The notes under the pieces are model-generated. The model worked only from the letters and a program-made list of their open reading frames with translations, made no database searches and was not told the origin of the DNA. This document shows positions 3,076-33,831 of a stretch of 33,831 nt of DNA, in pieces (the first letter of the stretch is position 1; every line of letters starts with the position of its first letter). The position numbers and the translations under genes were made by a program. The DNA comes from a virus (Duplodnaviria; Heunggongvirae; Uroviricota; Caudoviricetes): IMG/VR virus record IMGVR_UViG_2681813321_000006, one strand, 5' to 3'.

Positions 3076-3827
3076 CAGTTTACCCTATCGGTATTGCTTC
3101 CACCGCGCTGAACACCGCCATGAGTGTGCGTATCATCGATTGGCTTGCCGTTAGCCTTCACGCTCCCCAAAAACTCAACAGCACCAGTGATTTTTGAAGC
3201 CACACCAGAAACCACAGACCCCACCATGCCCCCCATCCAGGTTAACAGGCCATGAATGGTTACTTTCTCAGAAAAATCAGCCAGAGGGGCAACCACATCA
3301 AGACCACCCGGAGCGACAATTTTAATTTTCCTGGTATCAGGATTAAGCTCAAAATAGGTGCTGCCGTCATCACTACGCAACTGTGTGGCACTGGTATTAA
3401 TACCGCTAATCCTCCTTGCCTGCGACTGGGGACCGACAATACAAAACGCATCCGATAAATCATGCATTCTGTCATCGACCGTCTCCTGTATCCCGCCACT
3501 CTGCCACCAGAAATCGATGCAGCGATCGGCAAAAATCACCAGGCATTCATCGCCGGCTTTTACCGGGAAAGTTAACGTGCAGCCGCCGCCGCGCGGAAAT
3601 ACCACCGGCACATCCACCAGCAGCGGGTAATTTTTGGTTACGCGGTTGCCGTCGTTGTCGGTTTCAACCGAACGAATAGCAGGCTGCACAACCGCCGTCA
3701 CCGCGTCAGGATCGAATGACTGAACGATGCCAGGCAAAGCGACGCGGATCTGGTTCTTTGTGGTTTCCCGCTCGGATTTGAATGTTTCGGCAAGGTCGCC
3801 GCTACGAGTCTGGTCTGATATGGCCAT
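3075..3827 (-). CDS. Baseplate spike / gpV-like protein
   Basis: ORF-track start 3860 is a TTG inside a terminator hairpin. First ATG at 3827 is preceded by AGGAG (3836-3840). Motifs LPGIVQSFDPD, VPVVFPRGGG, GDECLVIFADRCID fit the N-terminal domain of phage baseplate spike (gpV/Gp138_N-like) proteins (recollection). Confidence 0.6.
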   Translation of the reverse strand: MAISDQTRSGDLAETFKSERETTKNQIRVALPGIVQSFDPDAVTAVVQPAIRSVETDNDGNRVTKNYPLLVDVPVVFPRGGGCTLTFPVKAGDECLVIFADRCIDFWWQSGGIQETVDDRMHDLSDAFCIVGPQSQARRISGINTSATQLRSDDGSTYFELNPDTRKIKIVAPGGLDVVAPLADFSEKVTIHGLLTWMGGMVGSVVSGVASKITGAVEFLGSVKANGKPIDDTHTHGGVQRGGSNTDRVN

Positions 3828-3889: not shown

Positions 3890-4060
3890 TTATTTTTTCT
3901 GTTTAAAATTGTCCAACTCAGGTTCTTTAACGCTTTCTGTCATGTAATCCAATCCACCAAAAGGTACTTCAAGCATTATACTGCTTTCATAATCAGCCAT
4001 GGATTGCTCTGCTTGCGTTAGCTTGCTTTGCTGTGAGTTGTCATTATTTGATGTTGTCAT
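3890..4060 (-). CDS. Small hypothetical ORF (56 aa) in the AT-rich moron
   Basis: ATG at 4060, TAA at 3890-3892; weak AAGG upstream. Same frame as the upstream membrane ORF, separated by a TAG. Below the ORF-track size cutoff; may be non-coding. Confidence 0.15.
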   Translation of the reverse strand: MTTSNNDNSQQSKLTQAEQSMADYESSIMLEVPFGGLDYMTESVKEPELDNFKQKK

Positions 4061-4063
4061 CAA

Positions 4064-4618
4064 CTATGCCTTATTTATCAAAAGAAAAGTAACCGATAAT
4101 ATGAAAAAACCGAAAGATAACGCAATTCCTTCAAAAAGATAACGAGCGTAAACTGCCTTTTCTTTATGAAGACTTTCGATCAATTCAACAGCTTTACCAT
4201 ACTGAAACATATGGTATCTAAGCGTTTTAATTTTATCACCGTAAAATAAAAAATCATGCTCTTCTTTTCGCTTATGAATAGGCATTTTTGGTATATCTTT
4301 CAGTCCCCAAGTACGCCATAGGAAAAAAAAGCACATAACAATACAAACAAAGCACAGATATGCACAAAGTATAGATAATGTTAAAAACCAATTACTCTTT
4401 AGCCCACTTTTGAAATCAACAGTCCCAAATACAGCCAGTAGAGCAGAGGTTTCTACAGCTAAAATAGCAAGAAGGTAGTTAACTTTGTCCTCAAGACGAC
4501 GATATGTTGATTTTGCTTCCTCATATCTATCTTTATAATATGACGAAATAAAATCAGCGCCTATAGTCTCAATTGCCTTTTGTTCTTCTGTTGTATCTAT
4601 TGACGAACGCTTGCTCAT
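4064..4618 (-). CDS. AT-rich moron membrane protein (about 3 TM helices), unknown function
   Basis: 184-aa ORF. N-terminal charged helical region, then hydrophobic segments LLAILAVETSALLAVFGTV, WFLTLSILCAYLCFVCIVMCFFFLW and IALSFGFFILSVTFLLI. About 30% G+C by hand count versus over 50% in flanking tail genes. Confidence 0.55.
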   Translation of the reverse strand: MSKRSSIDTTEEQKAIETIGADFISSYYKDRYEEAKSTYRRLEDKVNYLLAILAVETSALLAVFGTVDFKSGLKSNWFLTLSILCAYLCFVCIVMCFFFLWRTWGLKDIPKMPIHKRKEEHDFLFYGDKIKTLRYHMFQYGKAVELIESLHKEKAVYARYLFEGIALSFGFFILSVTFLLINKA

Positions 4619-6932: not shown

Positions 6933-8920
6933 TAACCCACCCTCACCTGATTACTTCGCATGACCTGAGCATTTGCAGACTGTTGCCGACGTGCAACCTC
7001 ATTACCGACAGCGTGCGGATCTCCACCACCGTAAATGTGGTAGGTATTTTGCTGGTTAACCTCTGTCACTTTGCCACTAATTCCCGCCACGGCAGCCTTA
7101 TTAATCAGCTCCCGAGAATAGATATTTCTTCCATTCTCATGCTGGATAATGCTGCTCATCAATGCTGACATGGTTTGCGGATCGCTCATATTCAGGGCAG
7201 CCCGGGGATCCACTCCCAGTCGTTGCGATACAGCCCTGATATACGCAGTTGTGTTGTTATTATCAGACGCAGGTGCCCAGGTAGAGATAATTTTCTCCAC
7301 ACTGTTTATTCCCCGTCCGGCGTACAGCATTAACTGACGAGCAAGAGCCCGTAATCCATCAAAAGCAGTTTCAAATCTGGCAAATCGCCCGCCCGGGCGT
7401 TCAAGAGAAGCCCCTGCCTGACCAGCAAAATTAAGGTTTCCCGGATTGTTATTCCGTTCTCCTCGTTTCGTAGCCTGTGCATGTTGTTCCGGCTCATCAT
7501 CACCAAACCAGCCGCGTACCGTCCGGCCCACACTGCGGGGATCGAATCCCCAGTGCTCTTTAATCCAGTCGGCAGTACTGTTAGCGCTGTCTGTAACCAT
7601 CGGCATCGCTGACGGATTTTCGCTGCCCTGATTAAGTATCTGTTTGCCGATGCTGACGGCATCAGCCCAGCGGCCATCTTTGATAGCGTTGAGCAGGTCG
7701 GCGATCATGTTCAGCATTTTGCTGAATTCGCCCATCTGGTCGATGAAGTTGCTGAAATCCCACTTCAGGGACCATGATTTGGGGTCAATATTGAGCAGTT
7801 TCGCCAGCGCTTTCACCAGGTCGTTAACGGTCGTTTTAAGGTCACGAACCATCTTCAGCGCGGCATCGACCTCCGGTTTCCACTTGCCCCAGTCAATCAG
7901 GCTGTCGCCGCCTTCCTTCCAGGTCTGATAGTCCTCCCACAGGAGGGCAATACCCGCCGCCAGCGCGGTAATGAGGCCAATCGGCGACATCCAGAACGTA
8001 CTGTTCAGAATGCGCAGCGCAATCGTCAGTGCGCCAAACAGCGAGATCAACTCCCGCGTTTGCTTATCCAGCGATTGCCACCAGGTGATAAGGCCTGATG
8101 TCCCCTCAATCAGTCTGAAGAACAGCCGCCCGATAATATCCCCGAGCGCCAGAATGCCTTTTATGGCTTTCGTCAGGGTCTGCTCGATACGAGGGAAGTT
8201 GTCCAGGATATGGCGGCGCAGGGTGTCCAGCGAACCCGCAAGCCCCCCCGCAAGATTAGAGCCGATTTTGTCACGGGCCATGCCTGCCATCGCGCCAAAC
8301 TCACGCAGGGAGGTCATAAATTTGTTGGAGCTTCTGGCCGCCTCGTCAGCATTGAAGCCGATAGCTTTCGCCATTGCGCTGTACTGCCCGGAGAAGCCAC
8401 CCACACCCCGGCGCATCGCCATAAGGGTATTTTCGTCAATGCCCAGCATCTGCGCATACTGGTTAGCCCGGTAATACGGCATGCTGCTGAGTTTCTGTCC
8501 AACGCCCGTAAAAATAGCGGCCATGTCACGCATGTTACCGCTGGCATCACGGGTCTGTACGCCCAGGCGATTCAGAAAGCCTTCTGCACCGGGATTGTTA
8601 CGAATAAACCGGGATAGGCTTTCCAGAGAAGATCGCGCAGCGTCCACGCTGCCGCCAACCTGCGAAACCGCATAGCCAATAGACTGAATTCCCTGGACTG
8701 TCGCGCCGGTGCGCTGTGACGCCCAGTAAAGATTATCCAGGCCGGAGGCGATCTTAGCCGTGAAGGCCACCACGGACAACGCAGCTCCTTCAACAGCCAG
8801 CCCCATTTTGATGACATTTGCAGTTGTACCGGCGAGGACAGAACCGAACTTTTTCGCTCCTGCATCATCCACACTGAAGCCAAGCGAGACGAGGAAATCT
8901 TTAATAGTTTCAGCGTTCAT
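6932..8920 (-). CDS. Tail tape measure protein
   Basis: Longest ORF in the tail module, between chaperone and baseplate genes. N-terminal Ala/Gly-rich helical region and central hydrophobic segments (LISLFGALTIALRIL, IGLITALAAGIALLW). Track start 8941 is TTG; ATG at 8918-8920 is preceded by GGAGAGAGG. Confidence 0.7.
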   Translation of the reverse strand: MNAETIKDFLVSLGFSVDDAGAKKFGSVLAGTTANVIKMGLAVEGAALSVVAFTAKIASGLDNLYWASQRTGATVQGIQSIGYAVSQVGGSVDAARSSLESLSRFIRNNPGAEGFLNRLGVQTRDASGNMRDMAAIFTGVGQKLSSMPYYRANQYAQMLGIDENTLMAMRRGVGGFSGQYSAMAKAIGFNADEAARSSNKFMTSLREFGAMAGMARDKIGSNLAGGLAGSLDTLRRHILDNFPRIEQTLTKAIKGILALGDIIGRLFFRLIEGTSGLITWWQSLDKQTRELISLFGALTIALRILNSTFWMSPIGLITALAAGIALLWEDYQTWKEGGDSLIDWGKWKPEVDAALKMVRDLKTTVNDLVKALAKLLNIDPKSWSLKWDFSNFIDQMGEFSKMLNMIADLLNAIKDGRWADAVSIGKQILNQGSENPSAMPMVTDSANSTADWIKEHWGFDPRSVGRTVRGWFGDDEPEQHAQATKRGERNNNPGNLNFAGQAGASLERPGGRFARFETAFDGLRALARQLMLYAGRGINSVEKIISTWAPASDNNNTTAYIRAVSQRLGVDPRAALNMSDPQTMSALMSSIIQHENGRNIYSRELINKAAVAGISGKVTEVNQQNTYHIYGGGDPHAVGNEVARRQQSANAQVMRSNQVRVG

Positions 8921-9553: not shown

Positions 9554-9994
9554 TTAAAACTCCCCGAGAACCTGGTCAATCTTGCCGCAGTCAAACACCC
9601 ACGGCATCGTATTACCGGTTTTAGCGTTGGCGTTATCCGGTTGTTTCTGGAACGCAACACTGCGTGCCGTGATGATGTCGCCGCTGACCTTGTTGCGGAT
9701 CACGATAACGTTATTCCCCCATGTGGCAGAAGACTGGCTCTGTGCGTTATACGCCAGCGACAATTTTTTATTTGTCGGTGATGTCTTCAGAAGGTTAACG
9801 GTAATCGTCCCGCTTTTATCTGCATGGAGACTGTGCATCACTTCGCCATCAGCACCGATGGTCATGGTGTTTTTAGGACCGCCCATCGCAACCACAATCC
9901 CCTCTTCAGAACTTGCCGAACCGTACCCGAGGTCAATCGAACCTGTCGGCCCGGTCAGCGTCGCAGTGACATCCATAAAAGAATAGGTAGACAT
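9554..9994 (-). CDS. Tail tube protein
   Basis: 146-aa ORF immediately downstream of the sheath-sized ORF. Size and order typical for a myovirus tube protein. Confidence 0.5.
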   Translation of the reverse strand: MSTYSFMDVTATLTGPTGSIDLGYGSASSEEGIVVAMGGPKNTMTIGADGEVMHSLHADKSGTITVNLLKTSPTNKKLSLAYNAQSQSSATWGNNVIVIRNKVSGDIITARSVAFQKQPDNANAKTGNTMPWVFDCGKIDQVLGEF

Positions 9995-22595: not shown

Positions 22596-23018
22596 TTATG
22601 CCGCCGAGCAGCTCCTACGCAAAGTCCTGATAGCCTGAGGCTTTGACTGAACCGACTGATCCATTTCGAGCACCACATCCAGCATGGCTAAGCAACCGTC
22701 AATAAATCCCTCTGCCGCCTGAAGCCTCTTCAGAACGTGGGTGTGAGATACGCCGAGCTTCTCACCCATCGCCCGCACGGGCATGGCCTGGACGTAATGC
22801 CACTCAAGGAGCGTGCACAGATACGGATCTTTTTTCTTCAGGCAGCTCATAGCGGAGTTGATGATAAGACCGTCATTGTCACTGCATTTCAGCCTTCCAG
22901 ACTGCGTCGCGGGTAGCAGATTCTTAAACCCGGCTGCAACAGGAGGAAAGTAGACGCTACCACCTTCACTCGCTGCCCAGCCACCCCAGCGCTCTAAAAC
23001 CTGTTGAATATTACGCAT
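22596..23018 (-). CDS. Q: Late-gene antiterminator, lambdoid Q-like
   Basis: 140 aa; N-terminal MRNIQQVLERWGGWAA... and overall pattern match my recollection of Phage_antitermQ-type proteins. Lies upstream of intrinsic terminators and the lysis cassette. ATG with GAGGT upstream. Confidence 0.75.
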   Translation of the reverse strand: MRNIQQVLERWGGWAASEGGSVYFPPVAAGFKNLLPATQSGRLKCSDNDGLIINSAMSCLKKKDPYLCTLLEWHYVQAMPVRAMGEKLGVSHTHVLKRLQAAEGFIDGCLAMLDVVLEMDQSVQSKPQAIRTLRRSCSAA

Positions 23019-23146: not shown

Positions 23147-23319
23147 CCTGTACCAATCTGTACCCACCTGTACCAGCTCTTTTCAAACCTTTTCCCCAAG
23201 CGACTTATATATATATATGGGGTTCTTAGTAATTAGGTTGGTACAGATGGTACAGTTGGTACTGACCTTTAAATTCAATTAGTTAAAATGTACCAACCTC
23301 TATTTTGAGGCTGGTACAG
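23147..23319. repeat. Iteron-like array of the 7-mer CTGTACC/GGTACAG flanking a (TA)n tract; putative replication origin or regulator binding array
   Basis: Direct copies at about 23148, 23158, 23168 (10-bp phasing) and 23289; inverted copies at about 23240, 23249, 23258 (9-bp phasing) and 23313; TATATATATATAT at 23206-23218 between the arrays. Confidence 0.55.
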
Positions 23320-25492
23320 GTTGGGACACCGCCTCAAAAATTCGAGTCATTTTCCCCCCAATTCGCCTTTGGGCACGCTTATACCCGCAATTTTGCAAAA
23401 CATTACTAATTCGCATTTCTTCGCGTTTTCCGATGCGGTCAGGATTTAGCCCAATCGCATCACGCAAAACATCACTTGCGCGTAAAAATTCGCAATTTCG
23501 CGGAAGTTCATTAGTCATCAGGTCTGGCGTGTCGAGCCATTTCTCTACCGTTTCAAGCCAAGCATCCTTGATGGTGTACTGTTCATGGACACTCGCTGCC
23601 AGTTGTTCAGCCTCACGGAACTGGATACCCCCCAGACGCTGAAACACCTCACGAGCCTCAGCCCAAAGTAAAAGGAGATCTCTTTTTATCGCTTTCACGT
23701 CGACTTTCGACACTTCCACGGGGAGCCAGCGACGGTTACCAGTCTTGTCCGCAAGGAATTCGTCCTCATTGGTGGTACCAACGAACACCAGGCGACGAGG
23801 AAACTGGGTGGCGAACTCCCGGTATTTCGGGATCCAGTTTTCGTGAGTACGCGTCACAAACGCTTTGATTGACTCCAGCTCTTTGGTATTAAGTCCGCGC
23901 AGTTCACCAATCTCTGCCACCAGCCGACCACGCATTTTTCGAGCGAGATCATCGTCTTTTTCGGCAAAAGAGATTTCAGTAAAAAACGCAGGATCAGGGC
24001 TCAGTGCCTCCACTCCGGAAGACTTACCGCAGCCCTGCGGACCAACGAGGATCGGCACCATATCCGCTTTGATGCCTGGCTCCAGTACTCGCCCCGCCAA
24101 CGCGGTCCACATGTACATAGACACCGCACGGGTATAAGGCGTGTCGGCTGTACCGAAGTGCGTATGGTAGAAACATTCGATGCGCGGCACGCCATCCCAC
24201 TCCAGCCCGTTCAGCCAGGTAATCGCTGAATCGAATGGTTGTTCATCGGCTGCAAGTAACACCACATCGCGAATAAGTTCACGACCAACAGGTTTAAATC
24301 CCCGCTTTTCCATCGTGATGCGCAGGCGCGCATAATCCGCATCGGTGAATGCTCGCCATTGTCCGGATCCTGCAGAGGCAAACATGATTTCGTCGCGGAA
24401 CTGGTCAAAGCGAATATCGATGTCCACAAAATCAGGGCGTACTACTGCTTTGGCTGCGTTGCTGATGGTTGCCTCGATACGCCCCCATTTATCACGCTCG
24501 AAAGCAGGCAGCGGTAAAGGTTCCGCCACTTCGGTGCTGGTCAGATCTTCGAAATCGTCGTTGCGGATCCCGATGGCATTAAGGAAATCTCCGTCATCAC
24601 GATGCGCACAACTGGCATGCAGGCATTTAAAATGCCCCTGCTCAAAGCCCGCGGTTCCCGCAGGAAAATAAGCTGTGCTTGTTGGATCGCCCCCGCTACT
24701 GTGGCCGTCTTCAAACGGACAGCGGATATATCGTTCACCATTTGCGCCATCCAGCAGCGTCCAGCCATTGGCATCAAGATATTCAGCTGTATCATCCGTC
24801 GCGCCGGGCGTGAATGCTGATCGGTCGCGCATCTTCGTGTTGCCCGCTTCGGTGGTTACCGACACAGGGAGTTGTTCAGCCAGGCGCTGCCACAGCGTTT
24901 CAAGCTGCTCACCAGTAATAGCCGGAGGTTCATCCGGCAAACCACCGTCCCATTCAATACGCGCGCCGCTGCTGTGCGTACCACAGGCAACGAACTGCTG
25001 CCCGTTCGCCAGCAACTCGATAATGCCCATATCCCCCGCCAGGCGATGGATACGCTTACAGAAATCACCATCAACGGCCAGCAGATACAGACACTTATTA
25101 CTGTTTGCTCGCCAGCGTCGCGGCGGCAACTCCCCCAGAAGTTGCACAAGCGTTTTGCGAATATCTGCCTGAATGTCTTCATCTTCGCTATCGCAGTCCA
25201 GCGCCAGCCAGCCATGGCCTGTACGCACGCAGATGCCATAATCCGGTTCATTCGACCAGCGGGCAAAATCATGCTCAGTAACAACATACCCGGTCCATTG
25301 AGCAATACCGGTGACCTGGCGGTCCCGGTTATAGCGACTTGGCGTCTTACCCAGCGCTTTCAGTTTACTATCAGGGGATATGGTCGCACCGGGGTTACAT
25401 ACAACTGGGAGAAGATGATCAGTTCTCCCCAATACCAGGTCGAAATGAAACCACTCATCAGGCGTAGCTCCCCATGGTTTGCTATCGGACAT
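23300..25492 (-). CDS. Primase-helicase (N-terminal prim-pol-like domain, C-terminal P-loop D5/VirE-type ATPase)
   Basis: 730 aa. Walker A GPQGCGKS and Walker B-like RRLVFVGTTNEDE in the C-terminal half. N-terminal LALDCDSED (DxD) and CGTHSSG motifs fit AEP prim-pol domains. Start coupled 3 nt after the cro-like stop. Confidence 0.7.
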   Translation of the reverse strand: MSDSKPWGATPDEWFHFDLVLGRTDHLLPVVCNPGATISPDSKLKALGKTPSRYNRDRQVTGIAQWTGYVVTEHDFARWSNEPDYGICVRTGHGWLALDCDSEDEDIQADIRKTLVQLLGELPPRRWRANSNKCLYLLAVDGDFCKRIHRLAGDMGIIELLANGQQFVACGTHSSGARIEWDGGLPDEPPAITGEQLETLWQRLAEQLPVSVTTEAGNTKMRDRSAFTPGATDDTAEYLDANGWTLLDGANGERYIRCPFEDGHSSGGDPTSTAYFPAGTAGFEQGHFKCLHASCAHRDDGDFLNAIGIRNDDFEDLTSTEVAEPLPLPAFERDKWGRIEATISNAAKAVVRPDFVDIDIRFDQFRDEIMFASAGSGQWRAFTDADYARLRITMEKRGFKPVGRELIRDVVLLAADEQPFDSAITWLNGLEWDGVPRIECFYHTHFGTADTPYTRAVSMYMWTALAGRVLEPGIKADMVPILVGPQGCGKSSGVEALSPDPAFFTEISFAEKDDDLARKMRGRLVAEIGELRGLNTKELESIKAFVTRTHENWIPKYREFATQFPRRLVFVGTTNEDEFLADKTGNRRWLPVEVSKVDVKAIKRDLLLLWAEAREVFQRLGGIQFREAEQLAASVHEQYTIKDAWLETVEKWLDTPDLMTNELPRNCEFLRASDVLRDAIGLNPDRIGKREEMRISNVLQNCGYKRAQRRIGGKMTRIFEAVSQPVPASK

Positions 25493-25495
25493 GGG

Positions 25496-25708
25496 TTAAG
25501 CCTTTTTATCGTTTTGTGAGCCATACAACAGCCAATTAGGGTCGCAATCCAATGCTATAGACATTTCAAGAAGATAACGTGGCCGAGCAATAACACCACT
25601 TTCAATTCTGTTTATTGCCTGCTGGCTCACTCCTGTGAGCTCAGCCAACGTAACTTGCGTCATTTTGAGTTCTTTACGTCGTTCTTTTACTCGGGTCGCT
25701 AAGGTCAT
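25496..25708 (-). CDS. Cro-like HTH regulator (XRE family)
   Basis: Track start 25726 is TTG; ATG 25706-25708 has GAGGTG upstream. HTH MTQVTLAELTGVSQQAINRIESG. Divergent from the CI-like gene. Confidence 0.65.
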   Translation of the reverse strand: MTLATRVKERRKELKMTQVTLAELTGVSQQAINRIESGVIARPRYLLEMSIALDCDPNWLLYGSQNDKKA

Positions 25709-25828
25709 TGCTTTCACCTCATACAATTTTAGTGGTATTTAGCAACAACAAATGAGGTTTGTCAAATACAACAAAAATTGTTTTTAATGTGGGTATACAC
25801 ATTAATACAACCCAGAAGGACTAATCCC
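25709..25828. promoter_or_regulatory. Divergent cro/cI control region with operator-like repeats
   Basis: 120-bp AT-rich intergenic region. Perfect inverted repeat TTAATGTG-ggtata-CACATTAA at 25784-25805. ATACAA recurs at about 25721, 25766 and 25805. Confidence 0.5.
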
Positions 25829-26452
25829 ATGTCTCTCGCAGCCCGTTTTAAAGCACGTCGTTTGGAATTAGGAATGACTCAAGTGGAAGTAGCGAATTCT
25901 GCAGGGGTTAGCCAACAATCCATAGAATCCATCGAAAGTGGACGAACCAGAAAGCCACGCAATCTTCTGGATCTGGCTAAGGCCTTGAAATGTAGCCCAG
26001 ACTGGCTACTGAACGGTAAAAATATTATGCCTCTCGCGGAGATAAGTACCAGACGCATACCTATATTAAGTTACGTTCAGGCAGGAGAGCTTACAGAAGC
26101 AAGAGACATAACAGATCTGACAGGGGAATTTGAATATATTTTGGCAGACTCTGACATTCCAGAAACATGCTTCGCATTACGTATTGATGGCGACAGCATG
26201 CAACCAGAGTTTAAAGAAGGAGACATTGTTATCATCGATCCTGATCTATGTCCTGCACCAGGGGAGTTTGTTGTCGCCAAAAACGACGGTCACGAAGCTA
26301 CATTTAAAAAATACCGTCCATTAGGAATCGGCATCGACGACTTTGAATTAATCCCCCTAAATCCTGATTACCCTATTTTTCGTAGTGCAGATATGAACTT
26401 ACAGATCATAGGTGTAATGATCGAACACCGTATTTACCGCCGTAAACGTTAG
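25829..26452 (+). CDS. CI-like repressor (HTH plus S24/LexA-type autopeptidase domain)
   Basis: Refined ATG 25829 with GAAGGA upstream. N-terminal HTH MTQVEVANSAGVSQQSIESIESG; C-terminal GDSM (catalytic Ser) and downstream Lys (VVAKNDGHEATFKKY) as in lambda CI/LexA. Confidence 0.8.
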   Translation: MSLAARFKARRLELGMTQVEVANSAGVSQQSIESIESGRTRKPRNLLDLAKALKCSPDWLLNGKNIMPLAEISTRRIPILSYVQAGELTEARDITDLTGEFEYILADSDIPETCFALRIDGDSMQPEFKEGDIVIIDPDLCPAPGEFVVAKNDGHEATFKKYRPLGIGIDDFELIPLNPDYPIFRSADMNLQIIGVMIEHRIYRRKR

Positions 26453-26471
26453 TATTCCCACCGTAAATATC

Positions 26472-26491
26472 GGGAGGCGTAACAGCCTCCC
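26472..26491 (+). terminator. Stem-loop downstream of cI (terminator-like, weak U-tract)
   Basis: GGGAGGC-gtaaca-GCCTCCC, 7-bp perfect stem, 20 nt after the cI stop; followed by TTACCCCATTTG rather than a clean T-run. Confidence 0.4.
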
Positions 26492-26498
26492 TTACCCC

Positions 26499-26518
26499 AT
26501 TTGTAAAGTCTTACAAAT
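26499..26518. promoter_or_regulatory. 20-bp palindromic operator-like site ATTTGTAA-agtc-TTACAAAT
   Basis: 8-bp perfect inverted arms, 4-bp spacer, immediately after the cI-distal hairpin and upstream of the rightward replication operon. A related inverted repeat ATACAA-N6-TTGTAT lies at about 26587-26604. Confidence 0.45.
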
Positions 26519-26774
26519 TAAATTCACTTAAATATCAATAAAGTAGTATTCACACCCCACAAAATACCACGTTTGCGGTTTACACAATACAACTCAAATT
26601 GTATCTTTAGCCACAAGTCGAACGGCGCGACTCTAAACCATGCGTCGGGACCGTGGCGGGACAGGATGTCGGCAATACGGGTCAGTAAGTTCCCTTTGGG
26701 GTGCGGCGAAGCACTGCCTACTGATACAAGTCGAAGCCGCCGAACCACCAAAGTGAACTGAATGAGGAAACGGC

Positions 26775-26969
26775 GTGAAAACATATAAACCGCTCAAAGG
26801 TGAATGCCCTGCTTGCCAAACACAGCTTCAGACACCAAAGCCAAAACGATACCAAATCAACGAATGTTATGAGCACTGCCCTGGATGTGGTGCTTTCCTG
26901 CATACCATTGCAACGCACTGGCGTGTCCGCTTCAACCTTGTGGTACCACGTACGCACAATACCAACTGA
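26775..26969 (+). CDS. Small zinc-ribbon-like protein
   Basis: 64-aa ORF, GTG start with GAGGA upstream. Two CxxC pairs (CPAC, CPGC) about 20 residues apart; followed by an intrinsic terminator. Confidence 0.4.
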   Translation: MKTYKPLKGECPACQTQLQTPKPKRYQINECYEHCPGCGAFLHTIATHWRVRFNLVVPRTHNTN

Positions 26970-27000
26970 ATCATCCATGTAATTGCTGTGTGTAGTCTTT

Positions 27001-27026
27001 GCCCGCCGCAAGTGACGGGCTTTTTT
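27001..27026 (+). terminator. Intrinsic terminator after the zinc-ribbon ORF
   Basis: GCCCG...CGGGC stem followed by TTTTTTAT. Confidence 0.5.
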
Positions 27027-27085
27027 ATGTCTGAAAGCGCACTCGCAACAGCGCGCTCCCCGATATGAAAAAAGGAATACAACCG

Positions 27086-27235
27086 ATGAAACCTGAACAC
27101 CTCTATCGACTGACGGGGCGCGATGTTCTCCGTTATCGCCGTAAAAACTTCGATTTGATGACCGGTCTGGCCGTTGCCACTGCGCTCGGTCTGATCATCA
27201 CTTTCATTCTCCTTGTTGCGAGGACCACAGTATGA
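27086..27235 (+). CDS. Small single-pass membrane peptide (49 aa), translationally coupled to the next gene
   Basis: ATG 27086 with AAGGA upstream. Product [49 protein letters not shown] has a basic N-terminus and one C-terminal TM helix. Stop TGA overlaps the ATG of the 300-aa ORF (ATGA). Below track cutoff. Confidence 0.3.
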   Translation: MKPEHLYRLTGRDVLRYRRKNFDLMTGLAVATALGLIITFILLVARTTV

Positions 27236-28134
27236 GTTTAGAAACCAGTCTCGAACTTAATAATCAACTTCTGGCACAACATAATGCGCTGCTTGAACGT
27301 CTTATCCGCACAATGGCATCAGGTATTGTTATGCATCCTGACACGATTTCACGAGTGCAGGAATGTCGGGATACAGCAACTGAAACTGAAAATATGTCAG
27401 CGGCAATGACACTGGATGATCTGGAGTTCAGCGACGTTATCGCACTGGCTGGTTTCTACCCGGTAGCCACCCCTATCACAGAAGACATGCTGCAACGTGC
27501 TGTTGCCTACCGTGATGCTGAAGGCGATAAACGAGTAGTTCAGATTGATCCTCTCGACAGCGCATTGCAGGGCGTCAAACGAGCCAGGGCACTGCATAAA
27601 CCCGCTCTTCTGGACCTGTCCCGTAACATTCTTAAGTTCTGGGACGACCTGCCAACCATCGGCGAGCGACGTGCTTTTGCCGAGCAACTACTTGATGCAC
27701 CTGCAGATGGGCGTGATGAAGTTAAGCCGAAAAAGGCCAGTAACAAAGATGGAGAACGCACGGGGCCGTTTTACGTCAAAAATGTATCCGGCACAGCAGC
27801 CAGTGAACTCCACACCTTACGCAAGTTGAACGAGATGCTTAAAAAAGGCCATATCGAGATCAACCGTGTTGAGTACCTTCAGCTGCAGGAAGAATTTGCA
27901 CGCAGAGACGCAGCAAATTCCAGCCAGAATAATGACGCCAAAGATGACCATACAATTGATTTCGCGGCACTACGCAAACAAGCTGAAGGGTTGATCCTCC
28001 AGTTAGCAAAAGGGGGTTACCGGGCAGAAGCTATTGCAATTCTGGAAAAACAGGGAGCCAGGAAACTTGGTGAAGTAACGGATGAAAATCTCGCTGAAGT
28101 AATCACCCTGGCTGAAAAAGCACTGGAGGGTTAA
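27232..28134 (+). CDS. Hypothetical protein heading the replication operon (unknown function)
   Basis: 300-aa ORF, mostly helical and acidic by composition; 2-nt gap to the nuclease gene. No motif recognised. Confidence 0.45.
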
Positions 28135-28136
28135 TC

Positions 28137-29438
28137 ATGCCAGACGTTCATGCACAACTTTCTCCATCATCAGCGCATCGATGGATGCGCTGCCCAGGAA
28201 GTCTGGCGCTGGAGGCCACACAACCGGATAAAGAAACAACTTTTGCAATCGAGGGCACTGCAGCGCACGCGCTTGCTGAAAAAGTTCTACGAAACAGGCA
28301 AAGCCACCCGGAACACTACGCCGGATGCAATGTTTCTATGTTTCTCGGCTCATACCCCCTTCGCGAAAATCCTGATGATACATCTGGCCCACAGGTGGAT
28401 GATGAAATGGTCGAAGCCGTTGGCCGGTATGTTGATACGGTCTGGACTCTTGCACAGAATAATGAACTATTGGTTGAACAACGTGTTGATTTCTCACATA
28501 TAACGGGGGTGGAAGAATCTTTCGGAACTGCCGACGGCATAATCATCGCTGGTAACGAATTACAAATCCACGACCTGAAATATGGCAAAGGCGTCCGCAT
28601 TGATGCAGAACAAAATGAGCAACTACAACTGTATGCTCTGGGTGCGCTCGAACAATTCAGCATGCTGTATGACTTTGAGACTGTAAGATTATTTATTCAC
28701 CAGCCAAGGCTCAACCACGTTTCAGAATGGTCGTTAACCGTACAGGAACTTCAGTCTTTCGGTGAACGGGCACAGGAGGCCGCAACCAGTGCGATCCTTG
28801 TTCTCAATATTGCTGAATGCGAAGGCATTGAGACACTACCGCTGGAAAACTTCATACCTGGAGAAAAACAGTGCCGCTTCTGTAAAGCAAAAGCTATTTG
28901 CACTGCCCAGAAAATGCAGCATTTACAAACAGCGGCCAGCGATTTTGAAGATCTGACAAAGCCTGTCAGCGAAATAATCACCAATGCCAGCGCACGTGTA
29001 CCTCTGTTAACCATTGAGCAGCTTGCGGAGATCTATAGCCAGGCCGACTTTATTGAATCCTGGCTAAAGGCAGTACGGGACCGGGTTCACAATGAACTCA
29101 ATGCCGGACATCCGGTACCGGGGTTTAAACTGGTAACAGGAAAACAAGGTAACCGGGCCTGGAGTGATGAAGAGGCAGCTCGCGCACTTCTGAAGGACCA
29201 GTTCAGGTACAAAACTGAAGAAGTATTCGACTTTAAACTTATTAGTCCCACAAAAGCCGAAAAACTTATCAAAAAGGCCAGTCCACGCCGTTGGTCAAAA
29301 GTCGAGGCACTGATAACACGAGCTGATGGTAAACCAACCGTCATTCCCGAGTCAGACCCACGCCCCGCACTCAATATCAACCCTGTAAATGATTTCGACG
29401 ACGTATCCGACGATACGCTAACCGCAGACCTCATCTGA
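28137..29438 (+). CDS. PD-(D/E)XK nuclease, Cas4/RecB-like with Fe-S cysteines (DUF2800-like)
   Basis: 433 aa. Motifs GTADGIII (D), IHDLKYGKG (D-x-K), QLQLYALG (QxxxY); N-terminal Cys (WMRCPGS) plus C-terminal C-x2-C-x5-C ([10 protein letters not shown]) match the Cas4-type 4-Cys cluster. Confidence 0.65.
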
Positions 29439-29453
29439 TTTAAGGAAATACCC

Positions 29454-30002
29454 ATGAAACTGAAGCTGAACAATGTTCGTCTGGCCTTCCCGTCTCTGTT
29501 TGAAGCTAAAACTGTAAACGGCGAAGGCGATCCGCGTTTCTCCGCAGTATTTTTAATGTCTCCCAAACACCCACAACTGGAAGAAATCCGTAAAGCTATG
29601 AAGCAGGTAGCGAAGGAAAAATGGGGAGAGAAGTGGGAGCCCATTTATAACCAGCTGGAGAAAAAACTCAATCTGTGCCTGCATGATGGTGATGAAAAAG
29701 CAGAGTATGAAGGCTTCCCCGGTAATTTCTTCCTGAATGCTGCTAACAAAGCGCGCCCAGCTGTTCTTGATCGCGATCGTTCGCCACTTATTCAGGCTGA
29801 CGGACGTCCCTATGCAGGGTGCTATGTAAACGCCGTTATCGATATCTGGGCACAGGACAATAATTTCGGTAAACGCATTAATGCCTCACTCGGCGGAGTC
29901 CAGTTCCTGCGAGACGGCGATGCATTCGCTGGCGGCGGAGTGGCAAGCGCTGACGATTTCGACGATATCAGCGAAGGTGCTGATGCTGAAGCACTAATTT
30001 AA
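29454..30002 (+). CDS. DUF2815-like phage protein (putative ssDNA-binding/replication accessory)
   Basis: 182 aa; N-terminal MKLKLNNVRLAFPSLFE... resembles DUF2815 proteins that accompany DUF2800 nucleases and family-A polymerases (recollection). Confidence 0.5.
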   Translation: MKLKLNNVRLAFPSLFEAKTVNGEGDPRFSAVFLMSPKHPQLEEIRKAMKQVAKEKWGEKWEPIYNQLEKKLNLCLHDGDEKAEYEGFPGNFFLNAANKARPAVLDRDRSPLIQADGRPYAGCYVNAVIDIWAQDNNFGKRINASLGGVQFLRDGDAFAGGGVASADDFDDISEGADAEALI

Positions 30003-30017
30003 CCCTACTTCATAGAC

Positions 30018-30036
30018 GCCCGGTTAAACACCGGGC
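30018..30036. other. Hairpin between convergent genes (no U-tract)
   Basis: GCCCGG-ttaaaca-CCGGGC, 6-bp stem, between the DUF2815-like gene (+) and the AT-rich membrane gene (-). Confidence 0.4.
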
Positions 30037-30054
30037 TACTGATTAGGCGTATAA

Positions 30055-30684
30055 TCACTCAGGAATCTTAATCTTTCTCAATTCTTTATTTAGTTCACAG
30101 ATCTTTTTCTTAGACGGGAAAGTATCATACATCCAAAAACCAACAGTCTCTAAAACTATTATCATAACCATATACACAAGATAATTTAAAAGGCCTTCAT
30201 TTTGCCCTATGGAAATAATGCAGATAATAGAAAAAAGGGTAAACAGCACAAAACACAGAAAGGAAAACAGACGACTAATAATAAATAAAAAACCTGAAAA
30301 ATCAACATTAATAAAAAACACTCCGTTATCTTTCTCTATATAATTCTGAAGCTTAATCAACTGATTTATATACTGTCTTTTTTCTAATCTATTGCAAATG
30401 TAAATAACATCTCTTCGGTTATAAGATGATTGCAATTTCAGCGCATCACGAATAATTTTATCATTTATTCTTTTTTCTATGGCACTCTTATCCTCCTCAT
30501 CCAGATAACGTTCATACTTAACTAAATATAAAATTAACTTCTTAACATATTTAGGCTCTTTATACTTATAATTAAAAATGATCTTTCTTATCCAGACTCC
30601 CATAACAATCAAACATGAAAAAATATATCCAGCTATTTTCTCCAGATGCTCTGTATGGTCAATCAAGTATTGGATCATATGCAT
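30055..30684 (-). CDS. AT-rich multi-pass membrane protein inserted antisense in the replication operon (moron; candidate exclusion/abortive-infection effector)
   Basis: 209-aa ORF at about 28-30% G+C (hand count) versus about 60% in the flanking polymerase gene. Hydrophobic segments IAGYIFSCLIVMGVWI, FLFIISRLFSFLCFVLFTLFSIICIISI, LLNYLVYMVMIIVLETVGFW; Lys/Tyr-rich cytoplasmic region. Opposite strand to both neighbours. Confidence 0.55.
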   Translation of the reverse strand: MHMIQYLIDHTEHLEKIAGYIFSCLIVMGVWIRKIIFNYKYKEPKYVKKLILYLVKYERYLDEEDKSAIEKRINDKIIRDALKLQSSYNRRDVIYICNRLEKRQYINQLIKLQNYIEKDNGVFFINVDFSGFLFIISRLFSFLCFVLFTLFSIICIISIGQNEGLLNYLVYMVMIIVLETVGFWMYDTFPSKKKICELNKELRKIKIPE

Positions 30685-30730
30685 AATTAATCTTTTAATC
30701 AGTTAATAGAATAAAAACCAAGGTAAACAC

Positions 30731-32794
30731 ATGTCCAATATACTATGGGGCGACCTGGAAACCTATTGCGAAATCCCTATTACGAACGGTACCCATGCGT
30801 ATGCCGAAGGCGTTGAAGTGATGCTTTTCGCATGGGCTATCAACGACGGGCCAGTAAACGTGTGGGATATCACTGCCGGTGGTGGTATTCCACACGGCTT
30901 ATACGAAGCAATCGCAGACCCTGAAACCCTGCTTTATTTCCATAACTCTCACTTCGACCGCACCGTTCTGCGTTATGCAATGCCGCGCCTGGCACCGCCA
31001 GTCGAACGTTGGCGCGACACAATGGTGCAGGCGCTGGCGCACGGTCTCCCGGGGTCTCTGGGGGAACTCTGCGAAGTACTAGGCGTCCCGCAAGACAAAG
31101 CGAAGGACAAAGAAGGTAAAGCGCTGATCCAGCTGTTCTGTAAGCCACGCCCGAAAAACAGCAAACTGCGCCGGGCCACCAGCAAAACCCACCCGGAAGA
31201 ATGGCGGCGCTTTGTTGCTTACGCCGGACTGGATATCGAGGCAATGCGCGAAGTCTATAAACGTCTGCCGAAGTGGAATTATCAGGGGACAGAACTGGCG
31301 CTCTGGCATCGTGATCAGCAGATCAATGACCGGGGCGTCTGCATGGACGTGGAACTCGCACGCGCTGCGATCGACGCGGTAGACCAGGAACAAAAGCGCC
31401 TGGCAAAGCGTACACAGGAAATGACTGATGGCGAAGTGCAGGCAGCCACACAACGAGACGCGTTGATTAAGCACATTGTTGAATCCTACGGTGTGGAGCT
31501 ACCAGACATGCAACGCAGTACTCTGGAACGTCGTATTGCCGACCCCGATTTACCATCTGCCGTGAAAGAACTGCTGGCTATCCGCCTGCAGGCCAGTACT
31601 ACCAGCACCAGTAAATACAAGGCACTGATGAAAGGCGTAAGCCACGACGGGCGCTTACGCGGTACGCTACAGTTCTGCGGGGCGTCACGTACCGGTCGTT
31701 GGGCCGGACGGCTATTCCAGCCCCAGAACCTTCCCCGCCCTTCACTAAAACAGGAACAAATAGACGAAGGCATCGAAGCACTGAAAGCCGGATGTGCAGA
31801 CCTGCTGTTTGACAATATCATGGAACTAACCAGTTCAGCGTTACGTGGCTGCATTATCGCGCCAACAGGCAAAAAGCTGGTGGTAAGTGACTTGTCGAAC
31901 ATTGAAGGCCGTATGCTGGCATGGCTGGCGGGAGAAGAATGGAAACTGAATGCATTCAGAGAGTACGACGCCGGAACGGGTCCGGACTTATATAAACTGG
32001 CGTATGCAAAAGCTTTCGATATTGCACCAGATGATGTTGATAAACACATGCGTCAGATCGGTAAAGTCATGGAACTCGGTCTGGGTTATGGTGGTGGTGT
32101 GTCGGCCTTCATCACTTTTGCACTGGTTTACGGTCTCGATCTCGACGAGCTGGCGAACGCCGCACTACCAAACATTCCCCGCGATGTTATCCGCGAGGCG
32201 AAAAGCTGGTACGACGAATCGGTTAAACGCAAGTCAACCTACGGGCTTTCTGAACGGGTATTTATCGCCTGCGACTCACTTAAACGTCTCTGGCGCCGGG
32301 CGCATCCCGCGACCTGTGATTTCTGGTACGAACTGGAGCGCACCGTCCGCACTGCAATCGCCACACCGCAAAAAACATTGTATTGCGGTTATCTTAAAAT
32401 CCGCCGCGATGGCGCGTGGCTGCGCATACAGCTACCATCCGGACGCGCTGTATGCTACCCGTCTCCGGTTATCGAAAAAGGGAATATCACCTACATGGGG
32501 GTTAACTCTTATTCGCGTAAATGGCAACGACTCAAAACCTACGGCGGAAAGCTGGTGGAGAACATCACCCAGGCGGCCGCCCGCGACATTCTGGCCGGAA
32601 ACATGCCGCTTATCGAAGATGCCGGTTACAGCATTGTGCTGACGGTACACGACGAGGTGATCACCGAAGCACCTGACACAGAAGATTTCAACGATAAAGC
32701 GCTTTCCGCGCTTCTCTCCACTGACCCCGAATGGGCGCCCGATATCCCACTGAACGCTGGCGGTTTTGAGGCGTACCACTACAAAAAAGATTGA
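30731..32794 (+). CDS. Family A DNA polymerase with N-terminal 3'-5' exonuclease domain
   Basis: 687 aa. Exo motifs: GDLETYCE (DxE), [17 protein letters not shown]. Pol motifs: [15 protein letters not shown] (motif A-like), [16 protein letters not shown] (motif B, K...YG), LTVHDEV (motif C HDE). AAGG RBS. Confidence 0.85.
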
Positions 32795-32858
32795 TATAAC
32801 TCACCTTATCGAGCTATGGCGACATGCTGAATTCGAGTAAATTAAAGGAACAATACTT

Positions 32859-33620
32859 ATGCAGGAACTAACTGAAATGCCGATCACCTATCCATACCCG
32901 AGAGAAACTTTTCCTGACTTTTTGAGGGAGTGTGGGTTCACCAATTTTTCCCACGAACAGCGTGAGACTTGTGACTGCTATCGTTTAACGAATGGCGTAA
33001 TTGTTAACCTTTACACCACCCGGACCATTCAGTTTCAAGGTAACCCTCAAGAACGTCCCAATGTTGAAACTGCAATAATGACCCATTTAGGAACGCCGCC
33101 CACGGCAACACCACTAGCCGTAGAACAGCCATCTGAGCTCCCCAAAAAGATATTCATTGTTCACGGCCATGACCATACTGCAAAGGAGCAACTTGAGCTA
33201 ATCCTTCATAAACTTGGATTACCAGACCATTTCATTTTGCAGAATACGGGAGGGACTGGACTCACCATTATTGAAGAGCTTGAACGTGAAATTGGGCAAG
33301 GACAAACTGCTACCCGTTTCGGGATTGTTCTTTTGACACCTGATGATATGGGATACTCAAAGCGCGCCGGTGAAGCAGAAATCCAACCCCGCGCAAGACA
33401 GAACGTTGTACTCGAGATGGGTATGCTTCTTTCGTCCTTAGGGCGCAGCAATGTAGCAATCCTTCAGAAACAGCACCTAGAACAGCCTTCTGATGCTAAC
33501 GGGATTTTGTATCTGAATTTCAACGACCATGTACGTGAAACAGTTCCTCGTCTAGTGCAACGGTTACAAAATTCTGGTTTCGAATTTACACAAGCTCAAA
33601 TAGCTAACGCTTCCTCGTAA
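32859..33620 (+). CDS. Two-domain protein: unknown Cys-containing N-terminal domain plus C-terminal TIR-like (COG4271-type) domain
   Basis: 253 aa, AAAGGAA RBS. C-terminal region KKIFIVHGHD...RFGIVLLTPDD...RARQNVVLEMGML matches my recollection of the TIR-like nucleotide-binding family signature. N-terminal about 95 aa with ETCDCYR. Assignment not verified by search. Confidence 0.5.
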   Translation: MQELTEMPITYPYPRETFPDFLRECGFTNFSHEQRETCDCYRLTNGVIVNLYTTRTIQFQGNPQERPNVETAIMTHLGTPPTATPLAVEQPSELPKKIFIVHGHDHTAKEQLELILHKLGLPDHFILQNTGGTGLTIIEELEREIGQGQTATRFGIVLLTPDDMGYSKRAGEAEIQPRARQNVVLEMGMLLSSLGRSNVAILQKQHLEQPSDANGILYLNFNDHVRETVPRLVQRLQNSGFEFTQAQIANASS

Positions 33621-33643
33621 TTACCCCTTATTGTTGATTACAA

Positions 33644-33668
33644 CCCTGCATCGCGGGGTTTTTTATTT
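33644..33668 (+). terminator. Intrinsic terminator after the TIR-like gene
   Basis: CCCTGC-atc-GCGGGG stem (one G.U pair) followed by TTTTTTATTT. Confidence 0.6.
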
Positions 33669-33747
33669 GGGAATAAAAACCCTATGTCATTTAAATACCG
33701 GGACAGTCCGCTTTATTGTAAGCGACTCGTCAGAACCGTATTGATAT

Positions 33748-33831
33748 TTACTGAGAGCTCAGATCAACTTTCCAGGGCAACAGATCGCGTACCCGGTTTG
33801 CCGGCCAGTCCTGGATATGTTCAATGACGTA
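33748..33831 (-). CDS. 3' end of an unidentified minus-strand gene running off the window
   Basis: Open frame from the window edge to TAA at 33748-33750; visible C-terminus ...YVIEHIQDWPANRVRDLLPWKVDLSSQ. Too short to assign. Confidence 0.2.
   Translation of the reverse strand, partial: YVIEHIQDWPANRVRDLLPWKVDLSSQ

Follow-up and report, generated by a model that had tools for sequence, protein, structure and literature searches.

Early regions of the closest described phages

The early-gene order common to BPP-1, the Bcep phages, Xfas53, and YeP4 has been stated in a paper that also tabulates the APSE genes (PMC8579659). We compared the early regions of this group with that of a 33,831-nucleotide (nt) stretch of viral DNA (IMG/VR record IMGVR_UViG_2681813321_000006; Caudoviricetes), hereafter the window. 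The locus in question (positions 25496-32794) consists of divergent cro-like and CI-like repressor genes, a primase-helicase gene downstream of cro, and a DUF2800-DUF2815-PolA replication module downstream of cI. A first-pass annotation made from the sequence alone had called this architecture unusual.

The homologues of PolA were searched for among 50,697 phage records, the early regions of six phages were read from their annotation, and identities were determined by tblastn. The closest PolA homologues were those of YeP4 (73% identity), BPP-1, BMP-1, and BIP-1 (67%), APSE (61-65%), and Acinetobacter phage 4316 (64%); the PolA proteins of BcepC6B and Xfas53 were each 57% identical. Across the group, the identities were 57-73% for PolA, 55-66% for DUF2815, and 43-59% for DUF2800. 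YeP4, BPP-1, APSE-1, Xfas53, BcepC6B, and phage 4316 all carry the primase and cro genes on the minus strand and cI, DUF2800, DUF2815, and PolA in this order on the plus strand, with a VRR-NUC-type nuclease, a helicase, and an excisionase and/or integrase at the distal end of the cI arm. The window likewise has divergent cro-like and S24-type cI genes, a primase/VapE helicase after cro, and DUF2800-DUF2815-PolA after cI. These results indicate a known layout, lambdoid in topology, that is normal for the early region in the BPP-1/APSE/BcepC6B/Xfas53/YeP4 group. The first-pass annotation had made its claim depend on the layout not being standard for a described phage group; the order is identical in six described phages and is already in print for APSE, so the label "unusual" is withdrawn. 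Little else changes for the layout, which is in itself of low interest.

APSE-1 (Sendosyvirus) is the fullest match, with Q, lysis, and virion genes following the primase-helicase as they do in the window. On its repressor side, P1 stands with P53, P51 (DUF2800), P50 (single-stranded DNA-binding protein, SSB), P45 (PolA), and the P44 nuclease, and more distally with the P41 helicase, P40 xis, and P38 int; on its cro side, P2 (cro) stands with P3 (VapE helicase), P5 (Q), and the lysis and virion genes. APSE-1 was reportedly sequenced in 1999. APSE differs from the window in its P22-like podovirus virion module, the toxin cassette after Q, and its host and immunity. Furthermore, its PolA gene is annotated as containing an HNH endonuclease open reading frame (ORF), P46, and in some variants the match to PolA falls into two parts.

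BPP-1 (Rauchvirus, with BMP-1 and BIP-1) shares the early order, and its PolA, SSB, and nuclease were 67%, 66%, and 46% identical to those of the window, respectively. However, it has a podovirus virion module, a diversity-generating retroelement, and a methylase between cro and the primase; it lacks Q or a lambda-type lysis cassette after the primase, which is itself distant (26% identity over 189 amino acids, aa); and its immunity specificity is unrelated (AATGCG-N4-CGCATT). YeP4/5/6, Xfas53, BcepC6B, and phage 4316 share the order and orientation primase, cro | cI, nuclease, SSB, PolA, helicase, int. YeP4 is the nearest of this set (73% for both PolA and primase); it is described as a podovirus, and the immunity regions differ. 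The phages vB_EcoM-606R2, 611R5, and 689R2 (ON470579, ON470588, and ON470582) share with the window the virion genes, an RprA-like element described below, and parts with 97.5% identity, whereas their cI is 26% identical, no cro match was found, the N-terminal half of the primase has diverged, and the operators are different. No paper describing the vB_EcoM phages was found by literature search.

Phages lambda and 434 share with the window the prophage order int-xis...left operon-cI | cro-replication-Q-lysis-virion, a tripartite right operator (OR) with overlapping divergent -35 hexamers, and the left operator oL1 within pL downstream of cI. Phage 434 additionally shares the QQSIE recognition helix and ACAA-N6-TTGT operators. 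The window differs from both in that O/P, cII, N, and nut were not found, the replication genes are split over the two arms, and a PD-(D/E)XK nuclease and an annealing-type SSB occupy the position of lambda exo/bet. The true difference from lambda is gene content: a polymerase/helicase module takes the place of Red/kil/gam, and a prim-pol helicase takes that of O/P. The contrast with lambdoid phages drawn in the first-pass annotation therefore holds for gene content and was overstated for layout, because cI of lambda and 434 is also co-oriented with, and upstream of, the pL operon.

CI repressor and operators

The CI-like gene (25829-26452, plus strand) encodes a 434-type helix-turn-helix (HTH) domain (PF01381, HTH_3) and an S24 autopeptidase domain (PF00717, Peptidase_S24). 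The protein was 38% identical to the phage 434 repressor across the full length (E 6e-43), with an identical QQSIE recognition helix, and the Ala-Gly cleavage site, the GDSM serine, and the VAK lysine were all aligned. We take these residues to have the autopeptidase roles established for LexA and lambda CI. Judged by its sequence, the gene bears every hallmark of an SOS-cleavable lysogeny repressor, and the homology to 434 together with the S24 cleavage residues upholds the earlier view of it as the lysogeny repressor.

The operators of 434 are annotated as ACAA-N6-TTGT. Operator scans and a collinear alignment with 434 OR1-3, pR, and pRM identified the gap between cro and cI (25709-25828) as the right operator/promoter region. 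OR1 (25723-25736, ACAATTTTAGTGGT), a degenerate OR2 (25744-25757), and OR3 (25768-25781, ACAACAAAAATTGT) are collinear with the annotated OR1-OR2-OR3 of 434. The two regions share an identical 14-mer, GTTTGTCAAATACA, which in 434 holds the overlapping -35 hexamers of pR and pRM; in the window, the hexamers TTGACA (minus strand, 25760-25765) and TTGTCA (plus strand, 25759-25764) are arranged back to back.

The region after cI aligns with oL1/pL of 434, the two having in common a TTTACA -35 hexamer and an operator within the spacer and -10 hexamer. The pL-like promoter (TTTACA-17-TATCTT, 26579-26607, plus strand) is the sole plus-strand promoter predicted in the interval; its -35 hexamer begins 126 bp past the cI stop codon, and it encloses OL1 (26589-26602, ACAACTCAAATTGT), 137 bp past cI, in its spacer and -10 hexamer. 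A search for ATACAA-N6-TTGTAT with up to 2 mismatches gave three sites in 33.8 kb, against approximately 1.2 expected: two in the cro-cI gap (25721 and 25766) and one free of mismatches at 26587, which is 135 bp beyond the stop codon of cI. Perfect ACAA-N6-TTGT sequences were found in the window at 25768 and 26589 only. The operators are confined to these two places, and the match between OR and OL of the window was beaten by none of 200 shuffles. The tripartite OR and the OL/pL downstream of cI constitute a lambdoid arrangement in which OR2, OL2, and OL3 are degenerate. The assignment of 434-type operators makes the regulation of this prophage family, which approximately 3% of complete E. coli genomes carry, directly testable.

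Transcription of the polymerase module

We consider it likely that the region is the immunity/early centre of a temperate, integrating phage, of the lambda/434 kind with two divergent early operons around CI/Cro, and that the polymerase module is the CI-repressed equivalent of the pL operon. In 434 and lambda, cI is also followed on the same strand by oL/pL and a left operon ending in xis-int, so the polymerase module is best read as the pL equivalent. Its co-orientation with cI is explained in this way, and not by co-transcription with cI. For annotation, a DUF2800-DUF2815-PolA-helicase arm may be treated as the equivalent of a lambdoid pL operon, repressed by CI through the operator downstream of cI.

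Promoter activity, repression by CI, termination, and read-through are predictions from the DNA sequence, and the region would work as follows. CI would bind ACAA-N6-TTGT at OR and OL1 and, in the lysogen, would shut both early promoters. The hairpin directly 3' of cI (26472-26491, plus strand; -16.1 kcal/mol, z -3.1), a candidate terminator of the cI transcript, would end that transcript ahead of the pL-like promoter; YeP4 and 606R2 carry terminators at the equivalent position. At induction, RecA-stimulated self-cleavage of CI would free both promoters. Transcription from the right promoter would then cover cro, the prim-pol/VapE helicase gene, and Q, whose product would in turn switch on the lysis and virion genes. 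The left promoter would drive a small zinc-ribbon-like ORF (26775-26969) and, by read-through past the RprA-like terminator, the genes for the DUF2800 nuclease, DUF2815 SSB, and PolA; in intact copies of the prophage, the left transcript would also give VRR-NUC, a DEAD-box helicase, and the excisionase.

The arrangement recurs in relatives with other repressors. The immunity regions of 606R2, YeP4, and BPP-1 are unrelated, and in each of these phages a distinct operator-like palindrome occurs twice, once in the cro-cI gap and once past cI on its downstream side. The second palindrome sits at a promoter-like site facing the replication genes, which in 606R2 and YeP4 follows a terminator-like hairpin. 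The sites are TATGC-N6-GCATA inside TTGACC-18-TATAAA in YeP4 and AATGCG-N4-CGCATT beside the near-consensus promoter TTGACA-18-CATAAT in BPP-1, and the promoter-like sequence of 606R2 is TTGACG-17-TATAAA. Of 200 shuffles in each case, the number attaining the observed similarity between OR and OL was 0 for the window, 4 for 606R2, 7 for YeP4, and 0 for BPP-1.

Several observations weigh against the reading of the module as a pL operon. Xfas53 and Acinetobacter phage 4316 gave no significant result in the OR/OL repeat test. In the window, OL1 is the sole good operator after cI, and the positions matching oL2 and oL3 of 434 are degenerate. The generic promoter scan performed at chance, with 11 promoters found against 11.3 expected in shuffles, so the pL call rests on the operator overlap and the alignment with 434. 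A terminator-like hairpin (27001-27027) stands ahead of the replication genes, and searches of the window for an N-like protein, boxA, or another antitermination device were negative; boxA searched for within 2 mismatches gave five chance-level matches, none near either early promoter. Rfam at gathering thresholds gave no match over the whole window, and the folding of the 428-nt leader was no more stable than that of shuffles (z +0.23). A non-canonical antitermination system may be present.

Sequences resembling boxA, (C/A)GCTCTTTAACAA, were observed in the leaders of YeP4 (approximately 9664-9676) and 606R2 (approximately 24796-24808; coordinates of the extracted regions), just past the pL-like promoter. 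The YeP4 form is CGCTCTTTAACAA, and none occurs in the leader of the window. The motif presumably corresponds to the rrn/lambda boxA consensus, and its presence suggests Nus-dependent antitermination of the left operon in YeP4 and 606R2. A second motif common to the two leaders, CCTGGCAAAA(C/T)GAAAT(A/G)GC, follows the boxA-like sequence.

The main rival explanation is that the polymerase module has its own CI-independent promoter or regulator, and that the promoter at 26579-26607 serves only the leader, the zinc-ribbon-like ORF, and the RprA-like end, with transcription stopping at 27027. It would account for the hairpin with its T6 run at 27001-27027 and for the lack of an antitermination element in the window. 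A homology breakpoint against relatives with other immunity regions, at approximately 26973, also favors it, because the replication module then travels with its own upstream approximately 110 bp. However, no sigma-70-like promoter was predicted in 27028-27085, and the hairpin is modest. In addition, 606R2, YeP4, and BPP-1 have an operator-flanked promoter-like site there that faces the replication genes, which argues that 26579-26607 is the promoter of the replication operon. We therefore regard a separate promoter as unlikely.

Transcription of cI and the polymerase module as one operon from the cI maintenance promoter, with the replication proteins made in the lysogen, would agree with the common strand, and the weak U tract (UUACCCCAUUU) after the cI hairpin would allow some read-through. 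In 434 and lambda, to whose arrangement that of the window is homologous, the cI and pL transcripts are separate. Between cI and the first conserved gene of the replication operon (orf49) lie two hairpin/terminator elements in a 630-bp spacer, as well as the operator-occluded promoter, and constitutive expression of a prophage nuclease and polymerase would be costly. Co-transcription was rejected on the basis of the hairpin, the operator-bearing promoter, and the homology to 434, and we consider it very improbable. Least probable of all is that the layout is a strain-specific rearrangement or the product of prophage decay: an IS66-family element does truncate the left operon of the source strain at 33718, but the order recurs in particle-recovered phages (vB_EcoM-606R2/611R5/689R2, YeP4, BPP-1, APSE-1, and Xfas53), as well as in at least 179/5426 complete E. 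coli genomes, and all ORFs of the window are intact.

RprA-like element

An element resembling the 3' module of the host small RNA (sRNA) RprA (26985-27027, plus strand) is located past the pL-like promoter and ahead of the replication genes. It consists of the block AATTGCTGTGTGTAGTCTTTGCCC followed by the hairpin and T6. The match to Rfam RF00034 was full-length (26921-27030) and scored 48.2 bits, which is under the gathering score of 70, and its 5' part was weak. The block (26985-27008) was identical at 24/24 positions to nt 59-82 of K-12 rprA, and the hairpin and T-run after it were in the same register as in rprA, with a different inner stem and loop. The sequence at 27001-27027 was not accepted as a strong classical terminator, since it escaped the generic scan and its hairpin reached just -8.2 kcal/mol; it is called terminator-like only.

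In vivo, the last 47 nt of RprA persist as "processed RprA" (PMC9262595). The block and terminator of the window correspond to this part, with a 3' single-stranded block and a terminator. In contrast, the 5' two-thirds of RprA, which pairs with rpoS, narP, and hdeD, is not conserved in the phage element.

The 24-mer was found in 64 IMG/VR viral contigs, each of its two 18-nt halves in at least 120 contigs, and the element overall in more than 200 contigs. Among the matches listed, 160 unique instances showed a block, ATTGCTGTGTGTAGTCTT, with at least 90% conservation, sharp edges, and random flanks, a conservation that follows in part from the search patterns used. The stem after this block had 38 different 5' arms, and 90/118 unique variants among the matches listed folded to a hairpin and T-run. 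A CI-like gene was detected in 144/229 of the listed loci, and in 144/144 it was upstream on the same strand, at a median distance of 548 nt. Examples are a cII-bearing lambdoid contig and Cronobacter phage phiES15, in which the element is flanked by the repressor and kil/gam. Further occurrences of the motif were noted past thyA in N4-like Erwinia phages, as well as in jumbo Erwinia/Dickeya phages. In four of the extracted stretches, the element was located at 4051-4100 (L034), 8432-8478 (L044), 3501-3526 (L243), and 2501-2547 (L244). When 15 other phage loci with the motif were examined, 0/15 reached the Rfam RprA threshold, and they are therefore not rprA genes. No description of RprA-like phage RNAs or of the motif string was found in the searchable literature.

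These sequence comparisons allow the tentative proposal that a large, apparently undescribed phage family of copies of the RprA 3' module exists, built of ATTGCTGTGTGTAGTCTT and a freely varying terminator stem and giving an RprA-mimicking sRNA; we regard it as possible, though doubtful. According to this proposal, transcripts of the CI-controlled left early operon in temperate enterobacterial phages would meet their first terminator at the element. Those left transcripts that end early, upon induction or infection, would be trimmed to an sRNA that binds Hfq, mimics RprA, and acts on the host. The occurrence of the motif in N4-like and jumbo Erwinia/Dickeya phages, which are virulent, would then indicate that phages have generally captured a host sRNA module. 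A precedent is StxS, a phage sRNA that arises by early termination of a regulated phage transcript (PMC7547250); like the proposed element, this Stx-phage late-promoter sRNA derives from an early-terminated phage transcript. The element may be either just a portable terminator or an RprA-mimicking Hfq-binding sRNA. If functional, it would mean that a segment of a host stress sRNA is widely carried by phages in a constant regulatory location, and we consider it a lead worth following.

A search for a target of the block within the phage gave as best sense-strand duplex one of -22.6 kcal/mol inside a sheath-like gene, which is unconvincing. An attachment-site duplicate was rejected as the origin of the block, which lies mid-prophage and far from the integrase, the prophage itself being located at yfhL.

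Two contigs carrying the element have further features in the leader. In the lambdoid viral contig L044 (8340-8660), the leader past the pL-like promoter contains several hairpins with GAAAGA-type loops (GCCCG-GAAAGA-CGGGC and similar); these resemble boxB, and the RprA-like terminator and another terminator are interspersed among them. In the cII-bearing lambdoid contig L034 (3560-4050), approximately 490 nt of GC-rich sequence with no long ORF lies between the pL-like promoter and the RprA-like terminator; it had no Rfam match at the gathering threshold and may be a long structured leader RNA. A one-mismatch block, AATAGCTGTGTGTAGTCTTTGCCC, with a terminator was also observed at the 3' end of a hypothetical gene on the plasmid pABWA45_1 (approximately 4001-4061 in the coordinates of stretch L010). 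This plasmid copy is found on large E. coli plasmids, in 27 plasmid places, beside a RES/Xre toxin-antitoxin pair and umuDC.

Genes of the cro and cI arms

The first-pass annotation placed cro, the primase-helicase, Q, lysis, and virion genes on the minus strand, and the DUF2800 nuclease, DUF2815 protein, and family-A polymerase on the plus strand with the S24-type repressor, separated from it by a terminator/palindrome region; these assignments agree with our results, the separating region containing the hairpin at 26472-26491 and the second, terminator-like hairpin at 27001-27027. On the minus strand, the cro-like HTH regulator (25496-25708; HTH_3, E 2e-14) is a coding sequence of 70 aa in the PGAP annotation, which ends it at 25708; in the ORF list, it extends to 25726. 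The primase-helicase gene (23300-25492) begins 3 nt downstream of cro and encodes a 730-aa Prim-pol (archaeo-eukaryotic primase, AEP) fused to a VapE/D5-type helicase (phrog_256/1156). The Prim-Pol domain (PF09250) covered aa 77-188 with E 3e-9, above the curated cut-off, and the VapE domain (PF05272) covered aa 427-639 with E 2e-60. The protein also matched the VapE-like structure PDB 7pds (E 7e-34) and was 73% identical to the YeP4 primase. No O/P-type or DnaB/DnaC-type initiation genes were found in the cro-side operon, the prim-pol/VapE helicase gene being there instead. The last regulator of this operon is a Q-type late antiterminator (22596-23018, minus strand; PF06530, E 5e-42). It is followed in the annotation by a lambda-family holin, a GH24 endolysin, and the terminase, in keeping with a holin-endolysin-Rz cassette ahead of the late genes.

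On the plus strand, the 64-aa ORF at 26775-26969 is the first past the pL-like promoter, the position of N in lambda. It has a GAGGAA Shine-Dalgarno sequence, a GTG start, and two CxxC motifs; it was not called by PGAP and is a tentative gene. It matched zinc-ribbon Pfam families below the threshold only, is without an arginine-rich motif, and is kept at 89-98% identity beside different cI types in IMG/VR contigs. The first conserved gene of the replication operon is orf49 (27086-27235; 49 aa; phrog_11981, E 9e-37), which is a PGAP coding sequence. It is followed, at the position of APSE P53, by a gene for a 300-aa protein (27232-28134; phrog_6784, E 1e-179) with no assigned function; the C-terminal 57 aa of this protein were 56-71% identical to the corresponding APSE-1 and YeP4 ORFs.

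The DUF2800 gene (28137-29438; PF10926, E 1e-109; PF12705) encodes a PD-(D/E)XK (Cas4-like) exonuclease, 43-59% identical to those of YeP4, BPP-1, APSE-1, Xfas53, and phage 4316. The DUF2815 gene (29454-30002; PF10991, E 8e-44; phrog_112) encodes an Enc34-type (gp2.5-like) single-stranded DNA-binding/annealing protein. The family-A DNA polymerase gene (30731-32794; PF00476; phrog_17, E 2e-127) includes a 3'-5' exonuclease region. NCBIfam added nothing for the replication proteins.

The slot between the SSB and PolA genes (30003-30730) holds a low-GC (0.36) accessory ORF on the minus strand (30055-30684; 209 aa; phrog_10579, function not assigned), which interrupts the plus-strand module and has predicted hydrophobic stretches. 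The slot varies in length by more than 2 kb among relatives and therefore looks like an accessory-gene hot spot. Neither the 209-aa nor the 300-aa ORF had a PADLOC or Pfam match.

The first-pass annotation had ended the plus-strand module at 32794. The cI arm extends beyond this point into a gene for a TIR-domain protein (32859-33620, plus strand; PF10137, E 3e-31; PADLOC PDC-S35, E 7e-109), a candidate defence gene directly after PolA, and in the intact copy it continues to the integrase. The TIR domain is of the CAP12/Pycsar-effector type, and PDC-S35 is a PADLOC candidate single-gene defence system. The prophage family thus carries candidate defence genes in its early operon, the TIR protein included.

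Source prophage and virion module

The window is an E. coli prophage, of which 25400-33717 was 100% identical to a prophage in strain FDAARGOS_1059. This prophage is an intact copy with an integrase adjoining yfhL, and beyond the TIR gene its arm encodes VRR-NUC, a DEAD-box helicase, and an excisionase-like HTH protein before the integrase. The Q, replication, and TIR parts had 97.5% nucleotide identity to the induced phages vB_EcoM-606R2, 611R5, and 689R2. The prophage version with the RprA-like element was present in at least approximately 179/5426 complete E. coli genomes (approximately 3%). No tRNA genes were found in the window.

The VRR-NUC, helicase, xis, and int genes, which are present in the FDAARGOS_1059 prophage and in 606R2, lie outside the window, in which an IS66-family (ISCro1-like) insertion sequence, represented by one end (33718-33831, minus strand), truncates the left operon at 33718. 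This end encodes a transposase C-terminus and has a GTAAGCG... inverted repeat; it was 100% identical to the end of the ISCro1 copy in pABWA45_1 and is absent from the otherwise identical FDAARGOS_1059 prophage. In the source strain, the insertion after the TIR gene separates PolA from VRR-NUC, helicase, xis, and int.

The first-pass annotation had described the element as a mosaic with Mu-like head genes, a P2/Mu-like baseplate, and a replication strategy neither lambda- nor Mu-like. The mosaic description stands, because the virion module differs between phages that share the early region: in the prophage, an early module resembling that of BPP-1/APSE is joined to a virion module of the SEN34/Mulock-like myovirus kind and to an immunity region like that of 434. 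Its replication genes do not include lambda O/P or a Mu transposase; no transposase was found among the window ORFs examined, the IS66 end excepted, and intact copies carry a tyrosine integrase at yfhL. The attribution of the virion genes holds for a Mu-F domain (PF04233) and Baseplate_J, to which the Mu-like and P2/Mu-like content is limited; the virion module as a whole is of the SEN34/yong1/Mulock-type temperate myophage kind. A second low-GC (0.37) island (4064-4618, minus strand) was observed among the tail/baseplate genes. It contains a 184-aa ORF with weak PADLOC matches to 2TM/PycTM effector models (E 3e-4), which may be an accessory or defence gene.

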